A DNA stretch of 16,579 bases from a virus (taxonomy: Duplodnaviria; Heunggongvirae; Uroviricota; Caudoviricetes), in the IMG/VR virus record IMGVR_UViG_3300014205_000209, one strand, 5' to 3'. Below are positions 2,795 to 15,123 of the stretch, in pieces; position 1 is the first letter of the stretch, and each line of letters opens with the position of its first letter. A program made the translations under genes and the position numbers. The notes below the pieces were generated by a model, which worked only from the letters and a program-made list of their open reading frames with translations, was not told where the DNA came from and made no database searches.

Positions 2795-2924
2795 CTTTTT
2801 CCTTTTTTATTTTAGGATTTACACTTAATACTTTGCAACTATTAGTTGCACAAAAATAAATTATTTGATTATGTTGATTTCTCAAAATTTTAAATTTAAT
2901 TCCACATTGTTTACATTTTTCCAT
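2769..2924 (-). CDS. 51-aa zinc-ribbon microprotein (C-x2-C-x17-C-x4-C)
   Basis: Not in the track. ATG overlaps the upstream TAA (TAATG). Translation MEKCKQCGIKFKILRNQHNQIIYFCATNSCKVLSVNPKIKKEKDDFKIIRR; fills the 2795-2923 gap. Confidence 0.7.
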   Translation of the reverse strand: MEKCKQCGIKFKILRNQHNQIIYFCATNSCKVLSVNPKIKKEKDDFKIIRR

Positions 2925-3184
2925 TATTTTTCCAAAGGTGTTCTATTTGTTTGTTTACAATAAAAATTTATTTCTTTCGTTTTCTCTAACAATATTTTCT
3001 TTGCTTTAGAATAATCCAATTTACATCGTTTTAATAATTTAGATTTTGAACCTACTTCATCTTTATATTTAAGATTACACTTAAAACCTTCTTTTGAAAA
3101 CATTTCTATCATTTTTGCAATAAAGAATGATTTTCCTGAACCTACAGATCCTGCTAGTTCTATACTTAAAACATTTTTTTTCAT
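2924..3184 (-). CDS. Small P-loop-containing protein (Walker A only)
   Basis: IELAGSVGSGKS matches GxxxxGKS after a beta strand. At 86 aa it has no clear Walker B. Confidence 0.6.
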   Translation of the reverse strand: MKKNVLSIELAGSVGSGKSFFIAKMIEMFSKEGFKCNLKYKDEVGSKSKLLKRCKLDYSKAKKILLEKTKEINFYCKQTNRTPLEK

Positions 3185-6141: not shown

Positions 6142-6417
6142 CTAAATAGGAATGAATTTTATTAGTATATCTTCGTCACCATCAACTTTAATTTTACAAT
6201 TTGGAAAATCTTTATCACTTTCATTTAAAGACATTCCAAGTGTCATTTTGTTTTTAGGACATTCATTACCACATCTATCAAAATAACAACCATAACATTG
6301 AGAAGCAGTACCCTCGAAATGTTGTTTAATTTTGAATTTTATCCCTTTTATAATAATCTTGTCATGTGAAAATTTTGCAGGGATATATTTTTCTGGCTCA
6401 ATCAGTGTTATTTTCAT
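6142..6417 (-). CDS. Cys-rich hypothetical phage protein
   Basis: CYGCYF..C...C...C pattern; ATGA-coupled to the upstream gene. Confidence 0.65.
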   Translation of the reverse strand: MKITLIEPEKYIPAKFSHDKIIIKGIKFKIKQHFEGTASQCYGCYFDRCGNECPKNKMTLGMSLNESDKDFPNCKIKVDGDEDILIKFIPI

Positions 6418-7385
6418 GGTATAAATGGTGTAATATTTGTTATTTTATTTAAAGCTCTTAAAGCAGAACTTGAAATGTGTTCAAATTGTTTATCGCAAGG
6501 AATATAAATTACTTTAATATCATTTTTATAATATTTCATAAATTGAAGTTGATTCATTTCATAATCTAAATCATAACCATTTCTTAAACCTCTTATAATT
6601 GTTATATCTGCATAATCCTCTTTTTCTTTTACAAAATCTGTTAATAAACCTTCAAATGTTTGTACATCATAAAACCATAATTGTTCTTTTAATTTAACAT
6701 AACGTTCATTAAAACTTGCGGAATCTTTTTCTGGATTTTTTCCAATTGCTATTATAACTTTATCGAATAATTTAGATGACTTTAATAAAATATCCATATG
6801 ACCATTATGAAATGGGTCGAATGATCCTGCATATATACCTATTTTAGGTTTCCAATTTTTAACCAAATCAACCAAATAAAAAAGGTTATGATATTTTTCA
6901 TGTGAATTTGCAACATTTAAAAGAAATTCTAACCTTTTTTTTTTGAAAAATGGATAACTAATAAATTGATATTCTTTAAAAATTTGATAATTATAATCTA
7001 GCAATTTACTAATAGATTTATTTTCTAAAATTTCACAATCAATATTTTTAAACATTTGAAATAATTCATCAGTTGGTTCTTGATCAGTAAAATATAAACT
7101 AGTATTTTTAATAAATTCAACTATTTTATCTGCACATTTTTGATCAATGTCATATATTTTTTTATTAAAATCTTCAATAAATATTTTAGCACTTTCTTCT
7201 TCATTATTTCTTCTATTAGGATAATATACAATGTCATGATATTTTGCTACAATATTAAGAAATTTTCTATTTTCATTATCAATATCTAATTGTTTTATTC
7301 CCCTAAAAACATTTATTAAATGTTGAGTAGTATGAAAAAAACGATGATGTTCATTATATCTTAAATAAACTTCTTCAGTAAGCAT
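6414..7385 (-). CDS. coaD: Fusion of an HD-superfamily phosphohydrolase (COG4339-like) and phosphopantetheine adenylyltransferase
   Basis: N-terminal half: HRFFHTTQHL, YHDIVY, NEEESA, DCEIL. C-terminal half: GIYAGSFDPFHNGHMDI, DKVIIAIGKNPEK, IIRGLR, DLDYE and ISSS, all PPAT signatures. Confidence 0.88.
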   Translation of the reverse strand: MLTEEVYLRYNEHHRFFHTTQHLINVFRGIKQLDIDNENRKFLNIVAKYHDIVYYPNRRNNEEESAKIFIEDFNKKIYDIDQKCADKIVEFIKNTSLYFTDQEPTDELFQMFKNIDCEILENKSISKLLDYNYQIFKEYQFISYPFFKKKRLEFLLNVANSHEKYHNLFYLVDLVKNWKPKIGIYAGSFDPFHNGHMDILLKSSKLFDKVIIAIGKNPEKDSASFNERYVKLKEQLWFYDVQTFEGLLTDFVKEKEDYADITIIRGLRNGYDLDYEMNQLQFMKYYKNDIKVIYIPCDKQFEHISSSALRALNKITNITPFIP

Positions 7386-8839: not shown

Positions 8840-8882
8840 ATAAAAAAGAAAAGTCATAAAGTGCTTGTACACCTTATGACTT
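8840..8882 (-). terminator. Rho-independent terminator
   Basis: Minus strand AAGTCATAAGGTG-tacaag-CACTTTATGACTT (13-bp stem, one G-U pair) followed by TTCTTTTTTA, about 30 nt after the 8912 stop. Confidence 0.85.
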
Positions 8883-8911
8883 TAATACATGATTAATAAT
8901 GTATGAACTTA

Positions 8912-9157
8912 TTATGCTATTATTTCATTCCATTCAGGTTTTTCAAGTTCAACAAGTATTTCTGAATGAGAATAATCAATAAATTGTGTAATACTTGCTG
9001 GTTTTGTGCCTTCATATTTTAAAATTGTCTTAGAATGGTCATTATTCCATCTAAGTGTATTAAAATCTGTTTCAAGGCAATCTTCTATCATTTGTATGGT
9101 TAAATCAGCTTCCGGAATAATTACATACCTACGTTCTTCAATTCCATTAATTGGCAT
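8912..9157 (-). CDS. Conserved small phage protein (RYVII...TLRW..D.SKTILKYEG..P...YSHSEIL..L...EW type)
   Basis: Strong SD AAGGAG. The pattern recalls a widespread uncharacterised phage family often seen near virion genes (from memory, unverified). Confidence 0.75.
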   Translation of the reverse strand: MPINGIEERRYVIIPEADLTIQMIEDCLETDFNTLRWNNDHSKTILKYEGTKPASITQFIDYSHSEILVELEKPEWNEIIA

Positions 9158-9174
9158 TTTAAACTCCTTCTTTT

Positions 9175-9188
9175 TATTTAGTATTTAG
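9175..9188 (-). promoter_or_regulatory. Tandem CTAAATA x2, possible T4-like late promoter
   Basis: Minus strand CTAAATACTAAATA just upstream of the SD of 8912..9157; similar to the T4 gp55 late -10 element TATAAATA. Confidence 0.35.
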
Positions 9189-9228
9189 AGTAATATGTAA
9201 AAATATAAAACCAATAGAAAATTAGTTG

Positions 9229-9375
9229 TTATTTTTTGATTACAGGACACTTATCTTTACCAGGACAAAGATTAGCTTTTGGATTTATACATTTATCACA
9301 AATTGAGTATTCTTTTTCCGGAATAATCATTACATGATCAGCCCATCTTTCAGGTTTATTCAAATCATAAAACAT
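9229..9375 (-). CDS. 48-aa Cys-rich microprotein (C-x2-C-x7-C-x5-C)
   Basis: Not in the track. MFYDLNKPERWADHVMIIPEKEYSICDKCINPKANLCPGKDKCPVIKK; SD AAAGGA 7 nt upstream. Confidence 0.72.
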   Translation of the reverse strand: MFYDLNKPERWADHVMIIPEKEYSICDKCINPKANLCPGKDKCPVIKK

Positions 9376-9550
9376 TAGTTTTTCCTTTAAATTTCAAAAA
9401 ATCATTTTTAGATTCATCAGTGTTGTTAGAAAATAAACGTTTTGCATATTCAATGTCAAACATTCTTTCATTATTTTCTACAAATAGAATATTTTTTCCT
9501 TGTTTAATAGCTTCCTCTAACATTCTAAAATGCAAATTAGTTTTTAACAT
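9365..9550 (-). CDS. Hypothetical protein
   Basis: 61 aa, TAATG-coupled to the HD gene. Confidence 0.6.
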   Translation of the reverse strand: MLKTNLHFRMLEEAIKQGKNILFVENNERMFDIEYAKRLFSNNTDESKNDFLKFKGKTNVL

Positions 9551-10101
9551 TAATCACCTAAATAAAACCTTAATTGTAAAAATTTTAAAGTAACATTTAT
9601 TCCATTTATTAACGTTGTTTGTATTTCATTAAATTGTCTATTTTGTAATTCAAATAAGATATATGTTGTTTCAGACCAATATTTTTTAATAAATTTTAAT
9701 GGTACATCATCATGTTCCATAAATAAAACATTATGGTATCTATCTGCCAATTTAACAGTTAATGCATCATCTGACATATTTAACATCTTATTAGCTAAAT
9801 AATGCTTCTTTCCTAATTCTTTTACTTTGTTTGAATCACTTGATACTTCTAATACTATTTTTGCTATTTTTTCACCAAACATTTCTTTTATTTCATCATA
9901 AGTAGCATCTGTATCTTCCAAAGTATCGTGAAGTAATCCAGCAATTATTAGTGTTTCATTATGAGTTATATGTTCAAGTATTCTTGCGACTGCTTTTGGA
10001 TGTGAAAAGTATGGTAATGGTGGTTTTGTGAATGAACGTTGCTTATCACCATGTTTTTCTTTTGCATAGTTATAAGCTTCAATTATTTTTTGTTTTAACA
10101 T
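9550..10101 (-). CDS. Small alarmone hydrolase, Mesh1/SpoT-type HD domain
   Basis: YAKEKHGDKQR, PYFSHPKAVA, AGLLHDTLEDT and VKLADRYHN are the RelA/SpoT hydrolase signatures; no synthetase domain is present. Confidence 0.9.
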   Translation of the reverse strand: MLKQKIIEAYNYAKEKHGDKQRSFTKPPLPYFSHPKAVARILEHITHNETLIIAGLLHDTLEDTDATYDEIKEMFGEKIAKIVLEVSSDSNKVKELGKKHYLANKMLNMSDDALTVKLADRYHNVLFMEHDDVPLKFIKKYWSETTYILFELQNRQFNEIQTTLINGINVTLKFLQLRFYLGD

Positions 10102-10103
10102 AA

Positions 10104-10325
10104 TTATTTCTTTTCACGAAAAATTATTCTACCTTTTGATAAATCATAAGGTGAAAGTTCTAAAGAAACTTTATCACCTGGCATAATACGAATATTATTT
10201 ATTCTAATTTTTCCAGATACATGTGCTTTTACAATATGATCGTTTTCTAATTTAACATCAAATGTTGCATTTGCATGTGAAAGTATAACTTCACCACTCA
10301 TTTTAATTGAACCTTCTTTAGCCAT
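10104..10325 (-). CDS. infA: Translation initiation factor IF-1
   Basis: [13 protein letters not shown]...[49 protein letters not shown] aligns end to end with bacterial IF-1. Confidence 0.97.
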
Positions 10326-10785
10326 CTTTTTTCCCTTTATTTATTTCAGCTAGAATACTTTCACTTAAAAAACGTAAAAATTCTAAATGATCAACTTCTT
10401 TCCATTTTTCAATTATTTCATTTTTTTCTTTTTCAATATTAAATTCAGGATCTTTTGCAATCCATGGACATCCTGTTTCACTTCTTTCAACAATTGCATG
10501 TTCACTCATAGATTCACCTAATTTACATTTTTCTTCAAAATTTTCTTCTTCTGAAACTGATCTATTAGTACAAATTAAACAAGGTGACATTTTGTTAATA
10601 TTTTCTAACTCTGATTTTCTACATTGCATTTTAACATCTACTGTTTGTTTTAACAATTCTTTCATTTTTCCTTTAAACAAATTCATTTCATTTGTCATGA
10701 TAATATCAGGTACATTAAATTTGCGTAAAAAATGTAGTCTTACATAATTAAGCATTAATGATTGGAAAAGCATGCTGTTATTCAT
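10318..10785 (-). CDS. Hypothetical protein with Cys cluster (CLIC...C...CPW)
   Basis: Track start is 10809. The ATG at 10785 is ATGA-coupled to the HNH stop and is preferred. Confidence 0.65.
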
Positions 10786-11048
10786 TTTTTCTTTTTCCTT
10801 TTCATACAAACGCTGTTGTCTTTACGTTTACTTATAAATTTAATCCATTTTTGCACTTTTTCATTTGCTAAAATTTTGTCTAATGTATTATATAAATATT
10901 TCAATTCTTGAATAGAAAATAATTGATGTAATTGATCTCCACATGGAGGACACACAGGTATTGTTTCAGTACCTTTTTTAACTTTTGGAGTTAAATGATG
11001 TTTTTCAATTACATCAACTTCTCTATTACAAATTGAGCATTCATTCAT
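10782..11048 (-). CDS. Small HNH-family (YisB-like) zinc-binding nuclease
   Basis: CSIC..EKHHLTPK..G...VCPPCGDQLHQLF..QEL...YNTLDKI...KWI. Likely start MNECSIC at 11048 (track start 11063). Confidence 0.8.
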   Translation of the reverse strand: MNECSICNREVDVIEKHHLTPKVKKGTETIPVCPPCGDQLHQLFSIQELKYLYNTLDKILANEKVQKWIKFISKRKDNSVCMKRKKKK

Positions 11049-12198
11049 AGTCATCATCTTCAATAATATTAAAATTTTTATTAAATTTTTGTTTTAAATT
11101 TAAAATTTCATATAATTTTCTAACTTCAGCTTTAATGGAATAATCAAATTTAATAATATCTTTAAATGCTTTACCTTTTTTTAGATTAAATAAAAAACTT
11201 GGAATAGAAGGATGATTTGTTTCATCTTTTATAGCTAAAGCAAATTCTTTTTGATTTTCAATATGCTTTAATTTATTCCATATTGTTTCTATATTTGAAA
11301 TGAATTTTTCAAATTCTTCTTTTATAAAACTAACATATATTTTATATTCAGGAAAATAAGATAAAAATTCTTCGTATTCATTTGACAAAACTAATGTTAA
11401 AAGTCTTTTAGCAGAAATTTTACCACCATCTCGAATATGTGCAATTGCAACATATTTTGGATTTTTACATTTTATCCTTTTAAAAGAACCTTCAATTTCA
11501 TAAACACCAACAAAACCTTCTTCAAGTGTTTGCAAAGTTTTTGTGTTTTCAACAACTTCAATCATTGATTCAAAATCATATTGAATAGGTCTATTGATCC
11601 ATGCTATTTTTGCCCAATCATCTAACCTTGAAGATGAATATTCATCACCATTAAGATTATGTCTTGCAGCTAATAATGAAATTTTTGTATCTGAATATTG
11701 TGTTACTATTCTATTTTCAGGAGATGTTAATTCAAAAACCCAAGTTATATTTGGATTTGATTGTTCAATAAATTCCATTATTTTAGTATTTTTAATAGCA
11801 ATTTTAAATAATTCAGCAAATGTTATAGTTCCGAAAGTTGTTAAACCTTCAGCAAATGCCATAGAACGTGTAGCAACATTCCATTTATCTTTATAATAAT
11901 AAACAGATATTAGTGTCCCATCTAATTTTTCAAAATATTTTGCTTTTTCCCATTGAAAAGTTTTTTCACATTCACCTTCACCTAAATTATAAAATCTGTC
12001 AAATGATCTAGCAACTACTTTCCAAGTATTTTTTTCCAAAATTAAAGCTCTACATTGATCACATATTTCATGAAATTTTGGTGATTTAATACCATAATTT
12101 AAAACTACAAGATCTTCATATTCATTAACCTTAATATCAAACTCATCTTTGAGCTTTTGTAAACTATTTTCTGAAAGATATTTTTGAATTGCTAACAT
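11041..12198 (-). CDS. RNA ligase, T4 Rnl1 family
   Basis: VLNY, CRALILEK..WKVVARSFDRFYNLGE, motif I EKLDGTLI, FELTSPENRIV, EEGFV and RIKCKNPKY. Confidence 0.92.
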   Translation of the reverse strand: MLAIQKYLSENSLQKLKDEFDIKVNEYEDLVVLNYGIKSPKFHEICDQCRALILEKNTWKVVARSFDRFYNLGEGECEKTFQWEKAKYFEKLDGTLISVYYYKDKWNVATRSMAFAEGLTTFGTITFAELFKIAIKNTKIMEFIEQSNPNITWVFELTSPENRIVTQYSDTKISLLAARHNLNGDEYSSSRLDDWAKIAWINRPIQYDFESMIEVVENTKTLQTLEEGFVGVYEIEGSFKRIKCKNPKYVAIAHIRDGGKISAKRLLTLVLSNEYEEFLSYFPEYKIYVSFIKEEFEKFISNIETIWNKLKHIENQKEFALAIKDETNHPSIPSFLFNLKKGKAFKDIIKFDYSIKAEVRKLYEILNLKQKFNKNFNIIEDDDYE

Positions 12199-12611
12199 AA
12201 TACACTTTCTATTTCAATTTTCTTTAATGCTATTTTATAATAATCAGTTTCACCTTTAACTGCTTTATAAATATCGAATGCTAATTGCAAATTTTTATCA
12301 CTTAAATCATTTCTATTAGTATCATTTCCTGAAAACCAACCAAAAGTAGCATCAAGAATAGATATCGTACATACCTGTTCATTTGAATCATCATCAACGA
12401 AGTCAATACATAATGTACCACCTGTATAATATATATTAGTAATCAATTTGCTTTTCTGAGGTGCTGATTCTTTGATACAATGTTCCAACAAATTTTCTAA
12501 AATTGGTTCAAGAAAATCATTTGTCAAAATTATAGTTGATTGTTTAATTGATTGAAAAGAATCATTTTGATGTTTAATTCCAAAAATAGTTGTAAAAATT
12601 TTTCTAAACAT
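12192..12611 (-). CDS. Hypothetical protein
   Basis: Track start is 12629. The ATG at 12611 has AAGGAG 6 nt upstream and is preferred. Confidence 0.65.
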   Translation of the reverse strand: MFRKIFTTIFGIKHQNDSFQSIKQSTIILTNDFLEPILENLLEHCIKESAPQKSKLITNIYYTGGTLCIDFVDDDSNEQVCTISILDATFGWFSGNDTNRNDLSDKNLQLAFDIYKAVKGETDYYKIALKKIEIESVLC

Positions 12612-12654
12612 TAAATACTCCTTTTTCATTTTCAGAAATATCAGTGATTTTCAT
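12604..12654 (-). CDS. 16-aa peptide ORF (possible leader peptide or gene remnant)
   Basis: MKITDISENEKGVFNV*; SD AAGGAG-aatt-ATG. Its end overlaps the SD and ATG of the next gene. Confidence 0.45.
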   Translation of the reverse strand: MKITDISENEKGVFNV

Positions 12655-12700
12655 AATTCTCCTTTGATATAAATATCAATAAAAAATTGCAAAAAAGATT
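12654..12700 (-). promoter_or_regulatory. Repeated element copy 2 (AATC-T6-N10-ATTGATATTT-N6-AAGGAGAAT)
   Basis: Near-identical architecture to 15341-15386; also contains the inverted repeat TTGATAT-aa-ATATCAA (12664-12679). Confidence 0.7.
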
Positions 12701-12710
12701 ATTTCATCCT

Positions 12711-13767: not shown

Positions 13768-14117
13768 ATAATCCTCTTTAATTTTTTCCATGGTATATTA
13801 TTTTCGTCGGAAGAATAAATACATTTATCAGGTAAAACATAACTTGTTGATTTCAATGGAAAAGTATTACAATGTTTAGGTTTATTTTTTCCATGTAATT
13901 TGCACAAATTATTTTTAGATAATTGCGGACAACGATATGGAACAAAAAAACAATTAAACTCTTCGTTTTTACTTAAACATCTATATACCCTTATTTTTGT
14001 TACTTTTAATCTTTCTATAAATGCTTCATTAAACGATTTACTATCATGTTTTTCAAAATAAACCCACCACTTACAACATTCACCACATCTTTTCGGACAT
14101 TCTTTAATTGTTGACAT
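13764..14117 (-). CDS. YkgJ-family Cys-cluster (Zn/Fe-chelating) protein
   Basis: CPKRCGECC...CPQLSKNNLCKLHGKNKPKHCNTFP...C. Start moved from 14252 to 14117 to remove a 149-nt overlap with the ligase gene. Confidence 0.85.
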   Translation of the reverse strand: MSTIKECPKRCGECCKWWVYFEKHDSKSFNEAFIERLKVTKIRVYRCLSKNEEFNCFFVPYRCPQLSKNNLCKLHGKNKPKHCNTFPLKSTSYVLPDKCIYSSDENNIPWKKLKRII

Positions 14118-15123
14118 TAAATTTTTTCCATTGAGGTACACTTTTAGATCTGTCATATTGTTCATATACAAATTCTTTGTTTCTTTTATAAAATGAACCA
14201 CCACCTTTACATGGCTGATTATATGATGGTCCATGATTTTTAAATCTACCATTTATAGTAGTCACATACTTATGACAAATATGACATTTTTTCTTGTTTG
14301 AATTATATGAATGTTCAGTTGTAGTTTTAAATGATGTTTTTTGTTCTGGTGCACATTTGAATTGTTGTAATGTACACATATCTGGATTTTTGTCAGTTCT
14401 AAAATGTTCAAAAGACGGATGTCTCAATTTTCCTGATTCAAAAACACCTTTTCCAGAACATTGAATTACTTTACCAATATATTTTTGCTGATTATTATAT
14501 GCATCAACCCTTAGATTATAATCTAATCCACCTCCGACATTCCCTAGTTCAACTAATGTACCATTGATATATAATCCAATTTTAAAACCTTTAATGGCCA
14601 CTCCGTTGAATGATTCTGCATCAGATAATTCTATTCCAGTGATTACATAATCACCAGTATATGATTGTTTATATCTAAAAAATTCACCTGTTATTAAATT
14701 TTTAAGAATTAAACCTTCAAATCCACTTATTATTTGATCAAAATTTTCACGAACTTGTTTATGTGTGAAACGAGGAACCCAAAAACCTAAATTTGAATCA
14801 AATTGTGAACCATATTGTTGATTTGACCAATGAACAATCAATTTATCTTTATGCTTGTGTTTTATAGCCCATTGTGTACCTTGTAAATACTCACAATTAT
14901 AAAATTGACCTTGTTTAGATTTTATATCTGATCTTAGTAACCTTCCAGTTTTAGAAAAAAGACCAAGTTCACATAATGTTGTGAACCATCCATCCCACTT
15001 TTGTTCAACAATCCAAGTTGGTTCTGGACAACTATCCAACATTTGTAAAAATTCTTGTTTAGAATTTATGTTAGAATAAGGGAACTTAGTATGAAAAGTT
15101 CCATTTTGAATTTCTTGTAACAT
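14104..15123 (-). CDS. Compact ATP-dependent DNA ligase with C-terminal zinc finger
   Basis: Motif I EQKWDG, motif IV EGLILK, motif V YK..TGDYVITG, OB-fold GNVGGGL and KLRHPSF..FRTDK; tail C-x2-C-x13-H-x7-C. Confidence 0.85.
   Translation of the reverse strand: MLQEIQNGTFHTKFPYSNINSKQEFLQMLDSCPEPTWIVEQKWDGWFTTLCELGLFSKTGRLLRSDIKSKQGQFYNCEYLQGTQWAIKHKHKDKLIVHWSNQQYGSQFDSNLGFWVPRFTHKQVRENFDQIISGFEGLILKNLITGEFFRYKQSYTGDYVITGIELSDAESFNGVAIKGFKIGLYINGTLVELGNVGGGLDYNLRVDAYNNQQKYIGKVIQCSGKGVFESGKLRHPSFEHFRTDKNPDMCTLQQFKCAPEQKTSFKTTTEHSYNSNKKKCHICHKYVTTINGRFKNHGPSYNQPCKGGGSFYKRNKEFVYEQYDRSKSVPQWKKFNVNN

Follow-up and report, generated by a model that had tools for sequence, protein, structure and literature searches.

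A coupled run of RNA ligase, HlpB-like, IF-1 and alarmone hydrolase genes in an uncultured large phage: a likely operon of independent accessory genes

The stretch of DNA analysed here, referred to as the window, comprises 16,579 nucleotides (nt) of IMG/VR virus record IMGVR_UViG_3300014205_000209, whose source is an uncultured, AT-rich large phage. Its base composition is uniform, with a G+C content of 25% across the whole window, and the minus strand carries essentially all of its genes. Five consecutive minus-strand open reading frames (ORFs) between positions 12198 and 9550 were studied in particular. In their order of reading, they encode an RNA ligase of the Rnl1 family, a small HNH-like protein resembling HlpB, a protein devoid of relatives (an ORFan), the translation initiation factor IF-1 and a small alarmone hydrolase (SAH). 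An initial annotation had described them as a coupled cassette and a candidate system for translation rescue or anti-defence. ORF calling and direct reading of the sequence confirmed the five ORFs as well as the four junctions between them, which consist of an 8-nt overlap (11041-11048), an ATGA overlap (10782-10785), a second 8-nt overlap (10318-10325) and a 2-nt spacer (10104/10101). The identities proposed for the ligase, IF-1 and the alarmone hydrolase were also borne out, and profile scans confirmed that Pnkp is absent from the window. The concerted role ascribed to the five genes did not fare as well, as will be seen from their distribution among relatives.

The first of the five genes (11041-12198, minus strand) encodes an ATP-dependent RNA ligase of 385 residues. 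Membership of the Rnl1 family was indicated by a score of 65 bits against PF09511 (cut-off 28.3), by a match to phrog_562 (2.5e-47, the alignment reaching residue 348 of 385) and by similarity to the T4 Rnl1 structures 2c5u and 5tt6 (4e-9). Alignment to T4 Rnl1 showed that the nucleotidyl-transferase motifs are intact: motif I (KLDG, with K91), motif III (FELTSP, 155), motif IV (EGFVGV, 227) and motif V (KCK, 243-245). T4 Rnl1 reseals nicked tRNA. This enzyme, T4 RNA ligase 1 (gp63, RnlA), belongs together with Pnkp to the tRNA repair pathway that counters the anticodon nuclease PrrC; it shares with the window ligase the PF09511/phrog_562 family, the motif I lysine and all other motifs, and both proteins have similar lengths (374 and 385 residues, respectively). 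However, the window ligase is only distantly related to it: with 73 bits against TIGR02308, the T4 RnlA equivalog, it stayed under the cut-off of 242.25 and is a member of the family, not an orthologue-grade match. Moreover, neither Pnkp nor a plausibly sized Walker-A kinase was found in the window or in the adjoining 4.6 kb of the same contig (21 kb in total). Scanning IMG/VR with the ligase returned no relatives.

The second gene (10782-11048, minus strand) encodes a stand-alone protein of 88 residues, or 91 if translation starts at 11057. Its cysteines and histidines follow the layout CxxC..HH..CxxC..H and its score against the Pfam HNH profile was below the cut-off. The NCBIfam HlpB profile (NF058586) was matched at 2.2e-15 over residues 3-86 of 88, with 56.9 bits compared to an equivalog cut-off of 130 bits. 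An exhaustive HMMER search with this protein retrieved 537 cluster representatives, nearly all of them 85-120 residues long, and the ten family representatives that were scanned all matched HlpB with scores like that of the window protein; a scan of IMG/VR with the same protein gave no relatives. The closest homologue (61% identity) is carried by a 2-kb contig and has no ligase directly upstream. HlpB from B. subtilis is a DNA-binding protein that does not cleave its target; cells survive its loss only when AddAB has been deleted as well, and it has been tied to end processing by AddAB (PMC3765158). A length of about 90-100 residues and the CxxC..HH..CxxC..H layout are common to HlpB and the window protein, but the latter is phage-encoded, falls below the equivalog cut-off (57 versus 130 bits), displays a Glu at the canonical Asn position and has a Gly replacing the His after the second CxxC. 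The initial annotation had counted an HNH protein among the members of a translation-related set: a small HNH-like protein is indeed present, but it is HlpB-like, a resemblance that suggests a role at DNA ends and not in translation.

The third gene (10318-10785, minus strand) encodes the ORFan, a protein of 155 residues with five cysteines (55, 69, 72, 87 and 106). A word-based search among 5.8 billion clusters returned only the protein itself, and no family was found for it in Pfam, PHROG or NCBIfam. In an AlphaFold2 single-sequence model (mean pLDDT 58), helices were predicted at residues 2-66 and 117-154, the Cys-bearing middle being poorly predicted. Its Atlas feature matches had scores under 0.8, which corresponds to noise level, and its sole PADLOC match, to Cas13a, was sub-threshold (E 0.0055, 15 bits) and was likewise taken as noise.

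The fourth gene (10104-10325, minus strand) encodes a bacterial-type IF-1 of 73 residues. It scored 109.4 bits against TIGR00008 (infA), well over the equivalog cut-off of 61.15, matched PF01176 at 1.8e-21 and aligned end to end with solved bacterial IF-1s (1.5e-25). Huge phages have been reported to encode IF-1 as well as tRNA-ligation genes, and their IF-1 was proposed to supplement initiation (PMC7162821). Among phages, the best matches were those of Bacteroides phages DAC19, DAC20 and DAC22 (60-62% identity), which fits a Bacteroidota host without proving it; the host of the window phage probably belongs to the Bacteroidota. The genes of the huge phages and of the DAC phages similarly code for full-length bacterial-type IF-1 in large phages. 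However, theirs are found among unrelated genes, and only in the window is IF-1 wedged between an ORFan and an SAH.

The fifth gene (9550-10101, minus strand) encodes the SAH, a protein of 183 residues made of a hydrolase-only HD domain of the RelA/SpoT-homologue (RSH) type. PF13328 (HD_4) was matched at 2.1e-16 (60.5 bits, cut-off 27.2), and the best solved match was human MESH1 (3nr1, 2e-18), followed by Rel/SpoT hydrolase domains. Aligned to MESH1, the catalytic residues are intact (H34, H58-D59, E62-D63 and D120/N124), including the His-Asp and Glu-Asp pairs, and no match to the synthetase domain PF04607 was found in the protein. This SAH resembles MESH1, ATfaRel and PaSpo, the SAH of Salmonella phage SSU5, in consisting of one hydrolase-only HD domain of the RSH type, about 180 residues long, with HD and ED motifs. 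PaSpo is likewise phage-borne, and was matched to the window SAH by tblastn with about 30% identity over 58% of the length. MESH1 and ATfaRel restore the aminoacylation of tRNA that has been pyrophosphorylated at its CCA end by toxSAS toxins (bioRxiv 10.1101/2021.04.30.441581), and PaSpo neutralises such toxins (PMC9712102). Unlike these proteins, the window SAH is not accompanied by an adjacent toxSAS gene, and its substrate is assigned by family. A function as toxSAS antitoxin was considered and rejected: since no toxSAS gene is adjacent, the SAH is not the antitoxin of a toxin-antitoxin pair, and no synthetase-domain gene was found in the window or in L001, a contig of the same phage group.

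The tight packing of these five genes is not a particularity of the locus. Among the 32 junctions of the window, 14 are overlapping and another nine have gaps of 0-11 nt. As tight junctions are thus common window-wide, coupling provides no evidence of a functional module. In addition, the coupled run comprises eight genes, from 12629 to 9229. It opens with the block's first long gene (12192-12629, minus strand), which codes for 145 residues, or 139 from the second ATG, and shares 7 nt with the start of the ligase gene, and it is extended past the SAH by two overlapping ORFs of 61 residues (9365-9550, minus strand) and 48 residues (9229-9375, minus strand). The promoter-sized gaps nearest to the run are located at 12630-12710 and 9158-9228. 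After the second one, of 71 nt, comes a gene for 81 residues (8912-9157, minus strand) preceded by its own GAAGGAG ribosome-binding site. It is the last before an intrinsic-terminator-like hairpin (8850-8883, minus strand; a 15-bp stem then a T-run), which is the sole terminator predicted on the minus strand between 8000 and 14000. None of the products of 61, 48 and 81 residues matched Pfam or PHROG. The two gaps and the terminator suggest that the likely transcript has nine genes and not five, and co-transcription is plausible because no terminator is predicted between 12710 and 8883. Judging from gene packing and terminator absence, the region from about 12710 to 8850 probably forms one co-transcribed operon. 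A scan for sigma-70 promoters (39 sites versus 52.5 expected) was uninformative, and this model is also the wrong one for a Bacteroidota-type host.

The 81-nt gap heading the block (12630-12710, minus strand) contains a perfect 7+7 palindrome, TTGATAT-TT-ATATCAA (12664-12679), as well as a strong AAGGAG ribosome-binding site, and a leader ORF of 16 codons (12604-12654, minus strand) begins within it. This ORF follows the palindrome and the ribosome-binding site, and its stop overlaps the second ATG of the 145-residue gene by 8 nt. The palindrome and the short ORF are a possible operator and leader peptide at the head of the operon. The TGATAT element that had been assigned to the upstream region of the cassette lies within this palindrome (12673-12678); it is present, but it precedes the gene for 145 residues and not the ligase. 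The hexamer was not enriched in the window, where 25 copies were counted versus 28 +/- 5 in shuffled sequences. As for the protein of 145 residues, no match was obtained in Pfam, PHROG, NCBIfam or PADLOC, the only lead being a weak resemblance to domains of the GHKL/HATPase type in a language-model comparison (score 0.90, 130 shared features). Its size is like that of anti-sigma serine kinases, and the phage also encodes a STAS protein, an orphan receiver and a sigma-70-type gene.

The window was matched at 100% nucleotide identity by three metagenomic contigs, from ENA (41 kb), JGI (7 kb) and Logan (6 kb), and its DNA is contained in landfill and groundwater metagenomes; a megablast of the window against a phage collection gave no match. 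The five-gene arrangement itself was seen only in these three contigs, and the Rnl1-family ligase was also recorded on a contig of 80.6 kb. Conserved synteny of the cassette was not recovered: whether selected by ligase, SAH or IF-1, none of the relatives examined keeps the gene order. A second member of the cassette was found beside the first in none of seven groups of ligase relatives, none of three contigs with close SAHs and none of nine IF-1 loci, save for the pair of ligase and HlpB-like genes, which recurs in the nearest relative only.

The ligase relatives consisted of seven groups of metagenomic contigs (L004/L005, L006/L007, L008/L009 and each of L018-L021) with ligases 48-56% identical to that of the window, analysed with flanks of up to 8 kb. 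Neither IF-1 nor SAH was detected in these flanks by precomputed Pfam matches or by tblastn with every window protein. The nearest relative, L004/L005, has a ligase that is 56% identical and ATGA-coupled to an HlpB-like gene. The product of the latter is 83% identical over 52 residues, but has 64 residues versus 88, the basic C-terminal tail being lost, and a TnpB gene directly follows, which looks like an insertion into or beside the HlpB-like gene. In other groups, RtcB was found 5.2 kb upstream of the ligase (L006), a PF09414 ligase (Rnl2-like) accompanied Rnl1, a RlaP nucleotidyltransferase, Thg1 and YqeY (L020, 6747-12023), and a faint phosphatase match was located near the ligase (L021). 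Among cultured phages, the Rnl1 proteins nearest to that of the window (35-39% identity) were those of Vibrio phage D69, Pseudomonas phage phiPMW and Paraglaciecola virus GD1. According to the annotations of these phages, a polynucleotide kinase lies 1.3 kb downstream of Rnl1 in D69 and one gene downstream in phiPMW, and phosphatases flank Rnl1 on both sides in GD1; the region of D69 (L040, 353-8704) includes a nucleotidyltransferase, Thg1, Rnl1, the polynucleotide kinase, an HNH protein and a phosphoesterase. These observations suggest that the neighbours of ligase relatives vary and often belong to RNA repair. Compared with phage RNA-repair clusters, where Rnl1 occurs with Pnkp, Thg1, RtcB, Rnl2 or phosphoesterases, the window likewise places Rnl1 amid enzymes of nucleic-acid ends. 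Its neighbours, however, are IF-1 and SAH, not a kinase-phosphatase, a combination that is unique among the loci examined.

Analysis of SAH and IF-1 relatives led to a similar picture. Three phage contigs with SAHs 50-58% identical to that of the window (L022-L024) contained neither IF-1 nor a ligase in flanks of up to 8 kb. One of these, L022, originates from the same sample as L005 and has four genes in common with the window phage, one of them 81% identical, in a different order. Because L022 and L005 come from one sample, the pair of ligase and HlpB-like genes and the SAH appear to stand apart in what is probably the nearest related phage. None of the nine IF-1 loci (two IMG/VR contigs, Bacteroides phage DAC19, Sinorhizobium phage Phosso, a Lak phage, two huge phages of the LR7565xx series, a faecal contig and a bacterial-looking record) had an SAH or an Rnl1 nearby. 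The three genes are also dispersed in complete huge phages. LR756511 has its ligase at 9 kb, IF-1 at 180 kb and two SAHs, at 104 kb and 246 kb; in LR756508, the ligase, IF-1 and the SAH are located at 472, 432 and 85 kb, respectively. More generally, five of the six complete phages having both PF09511 and PF13328 show them 29-387 kb apart.

Since the order is kept in no relative examined, the locus appears to be a set of separate helpers transcribed together, not a dedicated system. We consider it reasonably probable that the genes between about 12710 and 8850 are accessory genes of independent function, assembled into one operon in a lineage-specific arrangement, and that they do not make up a conserved multi-part machine. 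Their adjacency would result from the head-to-tail packing of all genes in this phage and from the grouping of its accessory genes. The Rnl1-type ligase would seal broken RNA, classically tRNA nicked by anticodon nucleases, once an enzyme encoded elsewhere has healed the ends. The HlpB-like protein is predicted to bind DNA and may act on DNA ends or recombination intermediates, taking part in DNA-end metabolism together with the nearby DNA ligase described below. IF-1 would supplement or replace its host counterpart on the 30S subunit. The SAH would strip the 3'-pyrophosphate from (p)ppGpp or (p)ppApp, and perhaps from tRNA that has been pyrophosphorylated at its CCA end, an action by which the stringent response or an abortive infection of the toxSAS type may be blunted. 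These substrates are predicted from family membership, and the counter-defence roles are likewise predictions from sequence.

Several observations weigh against an operon of independent genes. Three of the products have to do with translation or tRNA, which is more coherent than a random draw of phage accessory genes usually is. The five genes are translationally coupled and no promoter-sized gap separates them, so that their expression is presumably linked. Relatives were distant (at most 58% identity) and mostly represented by short contigs. Finally, an SAH is located 1.9 kb from an RNA ligase in both the 635-kb phage LR745206 and Acidovorax phage ACP17, which hints at a link between ligase and SAH.

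This last point deserves closer consideration. The ligase and the SAH are about 0.9 kb apart in the window. In LR745206, SAH and Rnl1 are divergent with an adenylate kinase between them, and the 3 kb on the other side include a small HNH gene and an RNA ligase of the PF09414 family; its IMG/VR relatives have the SAH 4.5 kb from a PF09414 ligase, and no Rnl1. In ACP17, an annotated RNA ligase, an AAA_33 kinase, the SAH and a phosphoesterase are grouped within 3.9 kb on one strand. The annotated ligase displays ligase-like motif IV-V residues and was not detected by a search as a PF09511 member. Close pairs of SAH and ligase were therefore found in three unrelated lineages including the window, compared to about 0.1 expected among seven genomes under uniform placement, a null model that overstates the signal because phages cluster accessory nucleotide and RNA genes. 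This proximity may be taken as a weak recurrent signal. Large uncharacterised proteins encoded after the SAH in LR745206, BcepSaruman and Va1 showed no homology to one another or to the window.

An alternative explanation can be based on this signal. Rnl1 and SAH could form a pair reversing tRNA damage, the ligase sealing nicks in the anticodon loop and the SAH stripping the 3'-pyrophosphate from the CCA end, with IF-1, the HlpB-like protein and the ORFan as passengers. In a variant, an SAH-type HD hydrolase might be the 3'-end-healing enzyme that is wanting at the locus. Such a pair would account for the proximity of SAH and RNA ligase in the window, LR745206 and ACP17, and for contigs L010-L012, where 4.5 kb separate the SAH from a PF09414 ligase; it is also in line with the capacity of MESH1, the closest solved relative of the SAH, to restore aminoacylation of pyrophosphorylated tRNA (bioRxiv 10.1101/2021.04.30.441581). 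Furthermore, the slot adjoining the ligase, which holds Pnkp in D69 and phiPMW, is here devoid of a kinase-phosphatase. Nevertheless, both families are separated by 29-387 kb in five of the six complete phages that carry them, the partner is missing both from the three nearest relatives of the SAH and from the seven nearest of the ligase, and phages tend in any case to group their accessory genes for nucleotides and RNA. The ACP17 ligase was not recognised as a PF09511 member. A 5'-kinase would still be wanting even if the SAH healed 3' ends, and to our knowledge no SAH acts on RNA 2',3'-cyclic phosphate or 3'-phosphate ends, which also counts against the pair. We regard it as unlikely. An extended form of the same idea seems less likely still: phage SAH-type hydrolases would be RNA-end enzymes partnering RNA ligases, the SAH clearing blocked tRNA 3' ends (CCA pyrophosphate, perhaps other 3' phosphates) and Rnl1 sealing anticodon nicks; together with IF-1, they would constitute a compact translation-restoring kit, and the recurrence in LR745206 and ACP17 would be functional and not due to chance.

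The dedicated five-gene system of the initial annotation, directed against tRNA breakage, alarmone or toxSAS signalling and the arrest of initiation, must be considered improbable. All five genes are translationally coupled in a transcript-sized block and three of them have translation-related biochemistry. Its plausibility is further increased by the neutralisation of toxSAS toxins by the phage SAH PaSpo (PMC9712102) and by the presence of IF-1 and tRNA-ligation genes in huge phages (PMC7162821). However, the proposal falls short of the synteny test that it had set for itself, only the pair of ligase and HlpB-like genes being retained in a relative, and no IF-1 locus examined elsewhere adjoins a ligase or an SAH. 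The HNH-like member resembles HlpB, whose family is DNA-directed, and the middle protein is an ORFan without relatives. Tight junctions occur throughout the window, the coupled run extends past the five genes, and no product matched a PADLOC defence model above threshold.

A further gene bears on the last alternative. At 14104-15123, 1.9 kb upstream of Rnl1, the window encodes a minimal two-domain ATP-dependent DNA ligase of 339 residues with motif I KWDG and a Cys/His-rich C-terminal tail. A counterpart with 58% identity is found beside the ligase in L004 (3-1277). Assignment of this protein to the PF09414 type was rejected, as it showed no similarity to the PF09414 ligases of L010-L012, L020 and L030 and is of the DNA-ligase type instead. 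A nucleic-acid end-repair region, in which this DNA ligase, Rnl1 and the HlpB-like protein would be the conserved core, shielding or mending the DNA and RNA ends of the phage in the face of host nucleases such as AddAB/RecBCD, and IF-1 and SAH later insertions, would agree with the 339-residue protein being a minimal phage DNA ligase, with the lethality of HlpB loss in AddAB-proficient B. subtilis (PMC3765158) and with the retention in L004/L005 of exactly these three genes (58%, 56%, and 83% over 52 residues with ATGA coupling), but it is hardly probable either, given that a single relative is its basis, that the closest HlpB-like homologue has no ligase directly upstream on its 2-kb contig and that both partners are absent beside the other ligase relatives.

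Additional features of the phage can be mentioned apart from the proposed operon of independent accessory genes. Other window products include an M29 peptidase, a GH5 glycosidase, a fusion of an HD domain with a phosphopantetheine-adenylyltransferase-like (PPAT) domain, a receiver domain, a STAS protein and the small DNA ligase. In the 4.6 kb of contig adjoining the window, there are numerous small uncharacterised ORFs along with a sigma-70-type gene and a TnpB-like gene. Such contents correspond to those of a large uncultured phage. No tRNA genes were found in the window, L001 or L004, and no Rfam families in the window. An ORF of 86 residues (2924-3184) displays GSVGSGKS, which resembles a Walker-A motif, at residue 12; its length is insufficient for a normal P-loop NTPase, and it had no family match. 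TnpB/Cas12f-like genes are dispersed in the phage group of the window (L004, 3938-5203; L005, 3933-5198; L001, 3823-5049).

The HD-PPAT fusion protein (6414-7385) has relatives near SAH genes in other phages. A homologue of its HD half begins 3 nt past the SAH in L023 (6755-7315), and a homologue of its PPAT half is located about 5 kb from the SAH in L010-L012 (about 580-1475). Likewise, a cytidylyltransferase-like gene lies 1.6 kb past the SAH in Vibrio phage Va1 (L033, 4607-5071). The link of SAH to nucleotidyltransferases of the HD-PPAT type may be better conserved than its link to IF-1.

Each of the identified parts, namely IF-1, SAH and Rnl1, was already known from phages, and the locus adds one more large phage in which all three are present. 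Two by-products of the analysis are of use beyond this phage: HlpB-like proteins of phages occur directly coupled to RNA ligase, and SAH and RNA ligase genes display a weak but recurrent proximity. If it were true that the genes act as one kit, the locus would represent a compact and testable case of a phage countering several translation-directed defences at once, and would extend SAH enzymes into RNA repair.

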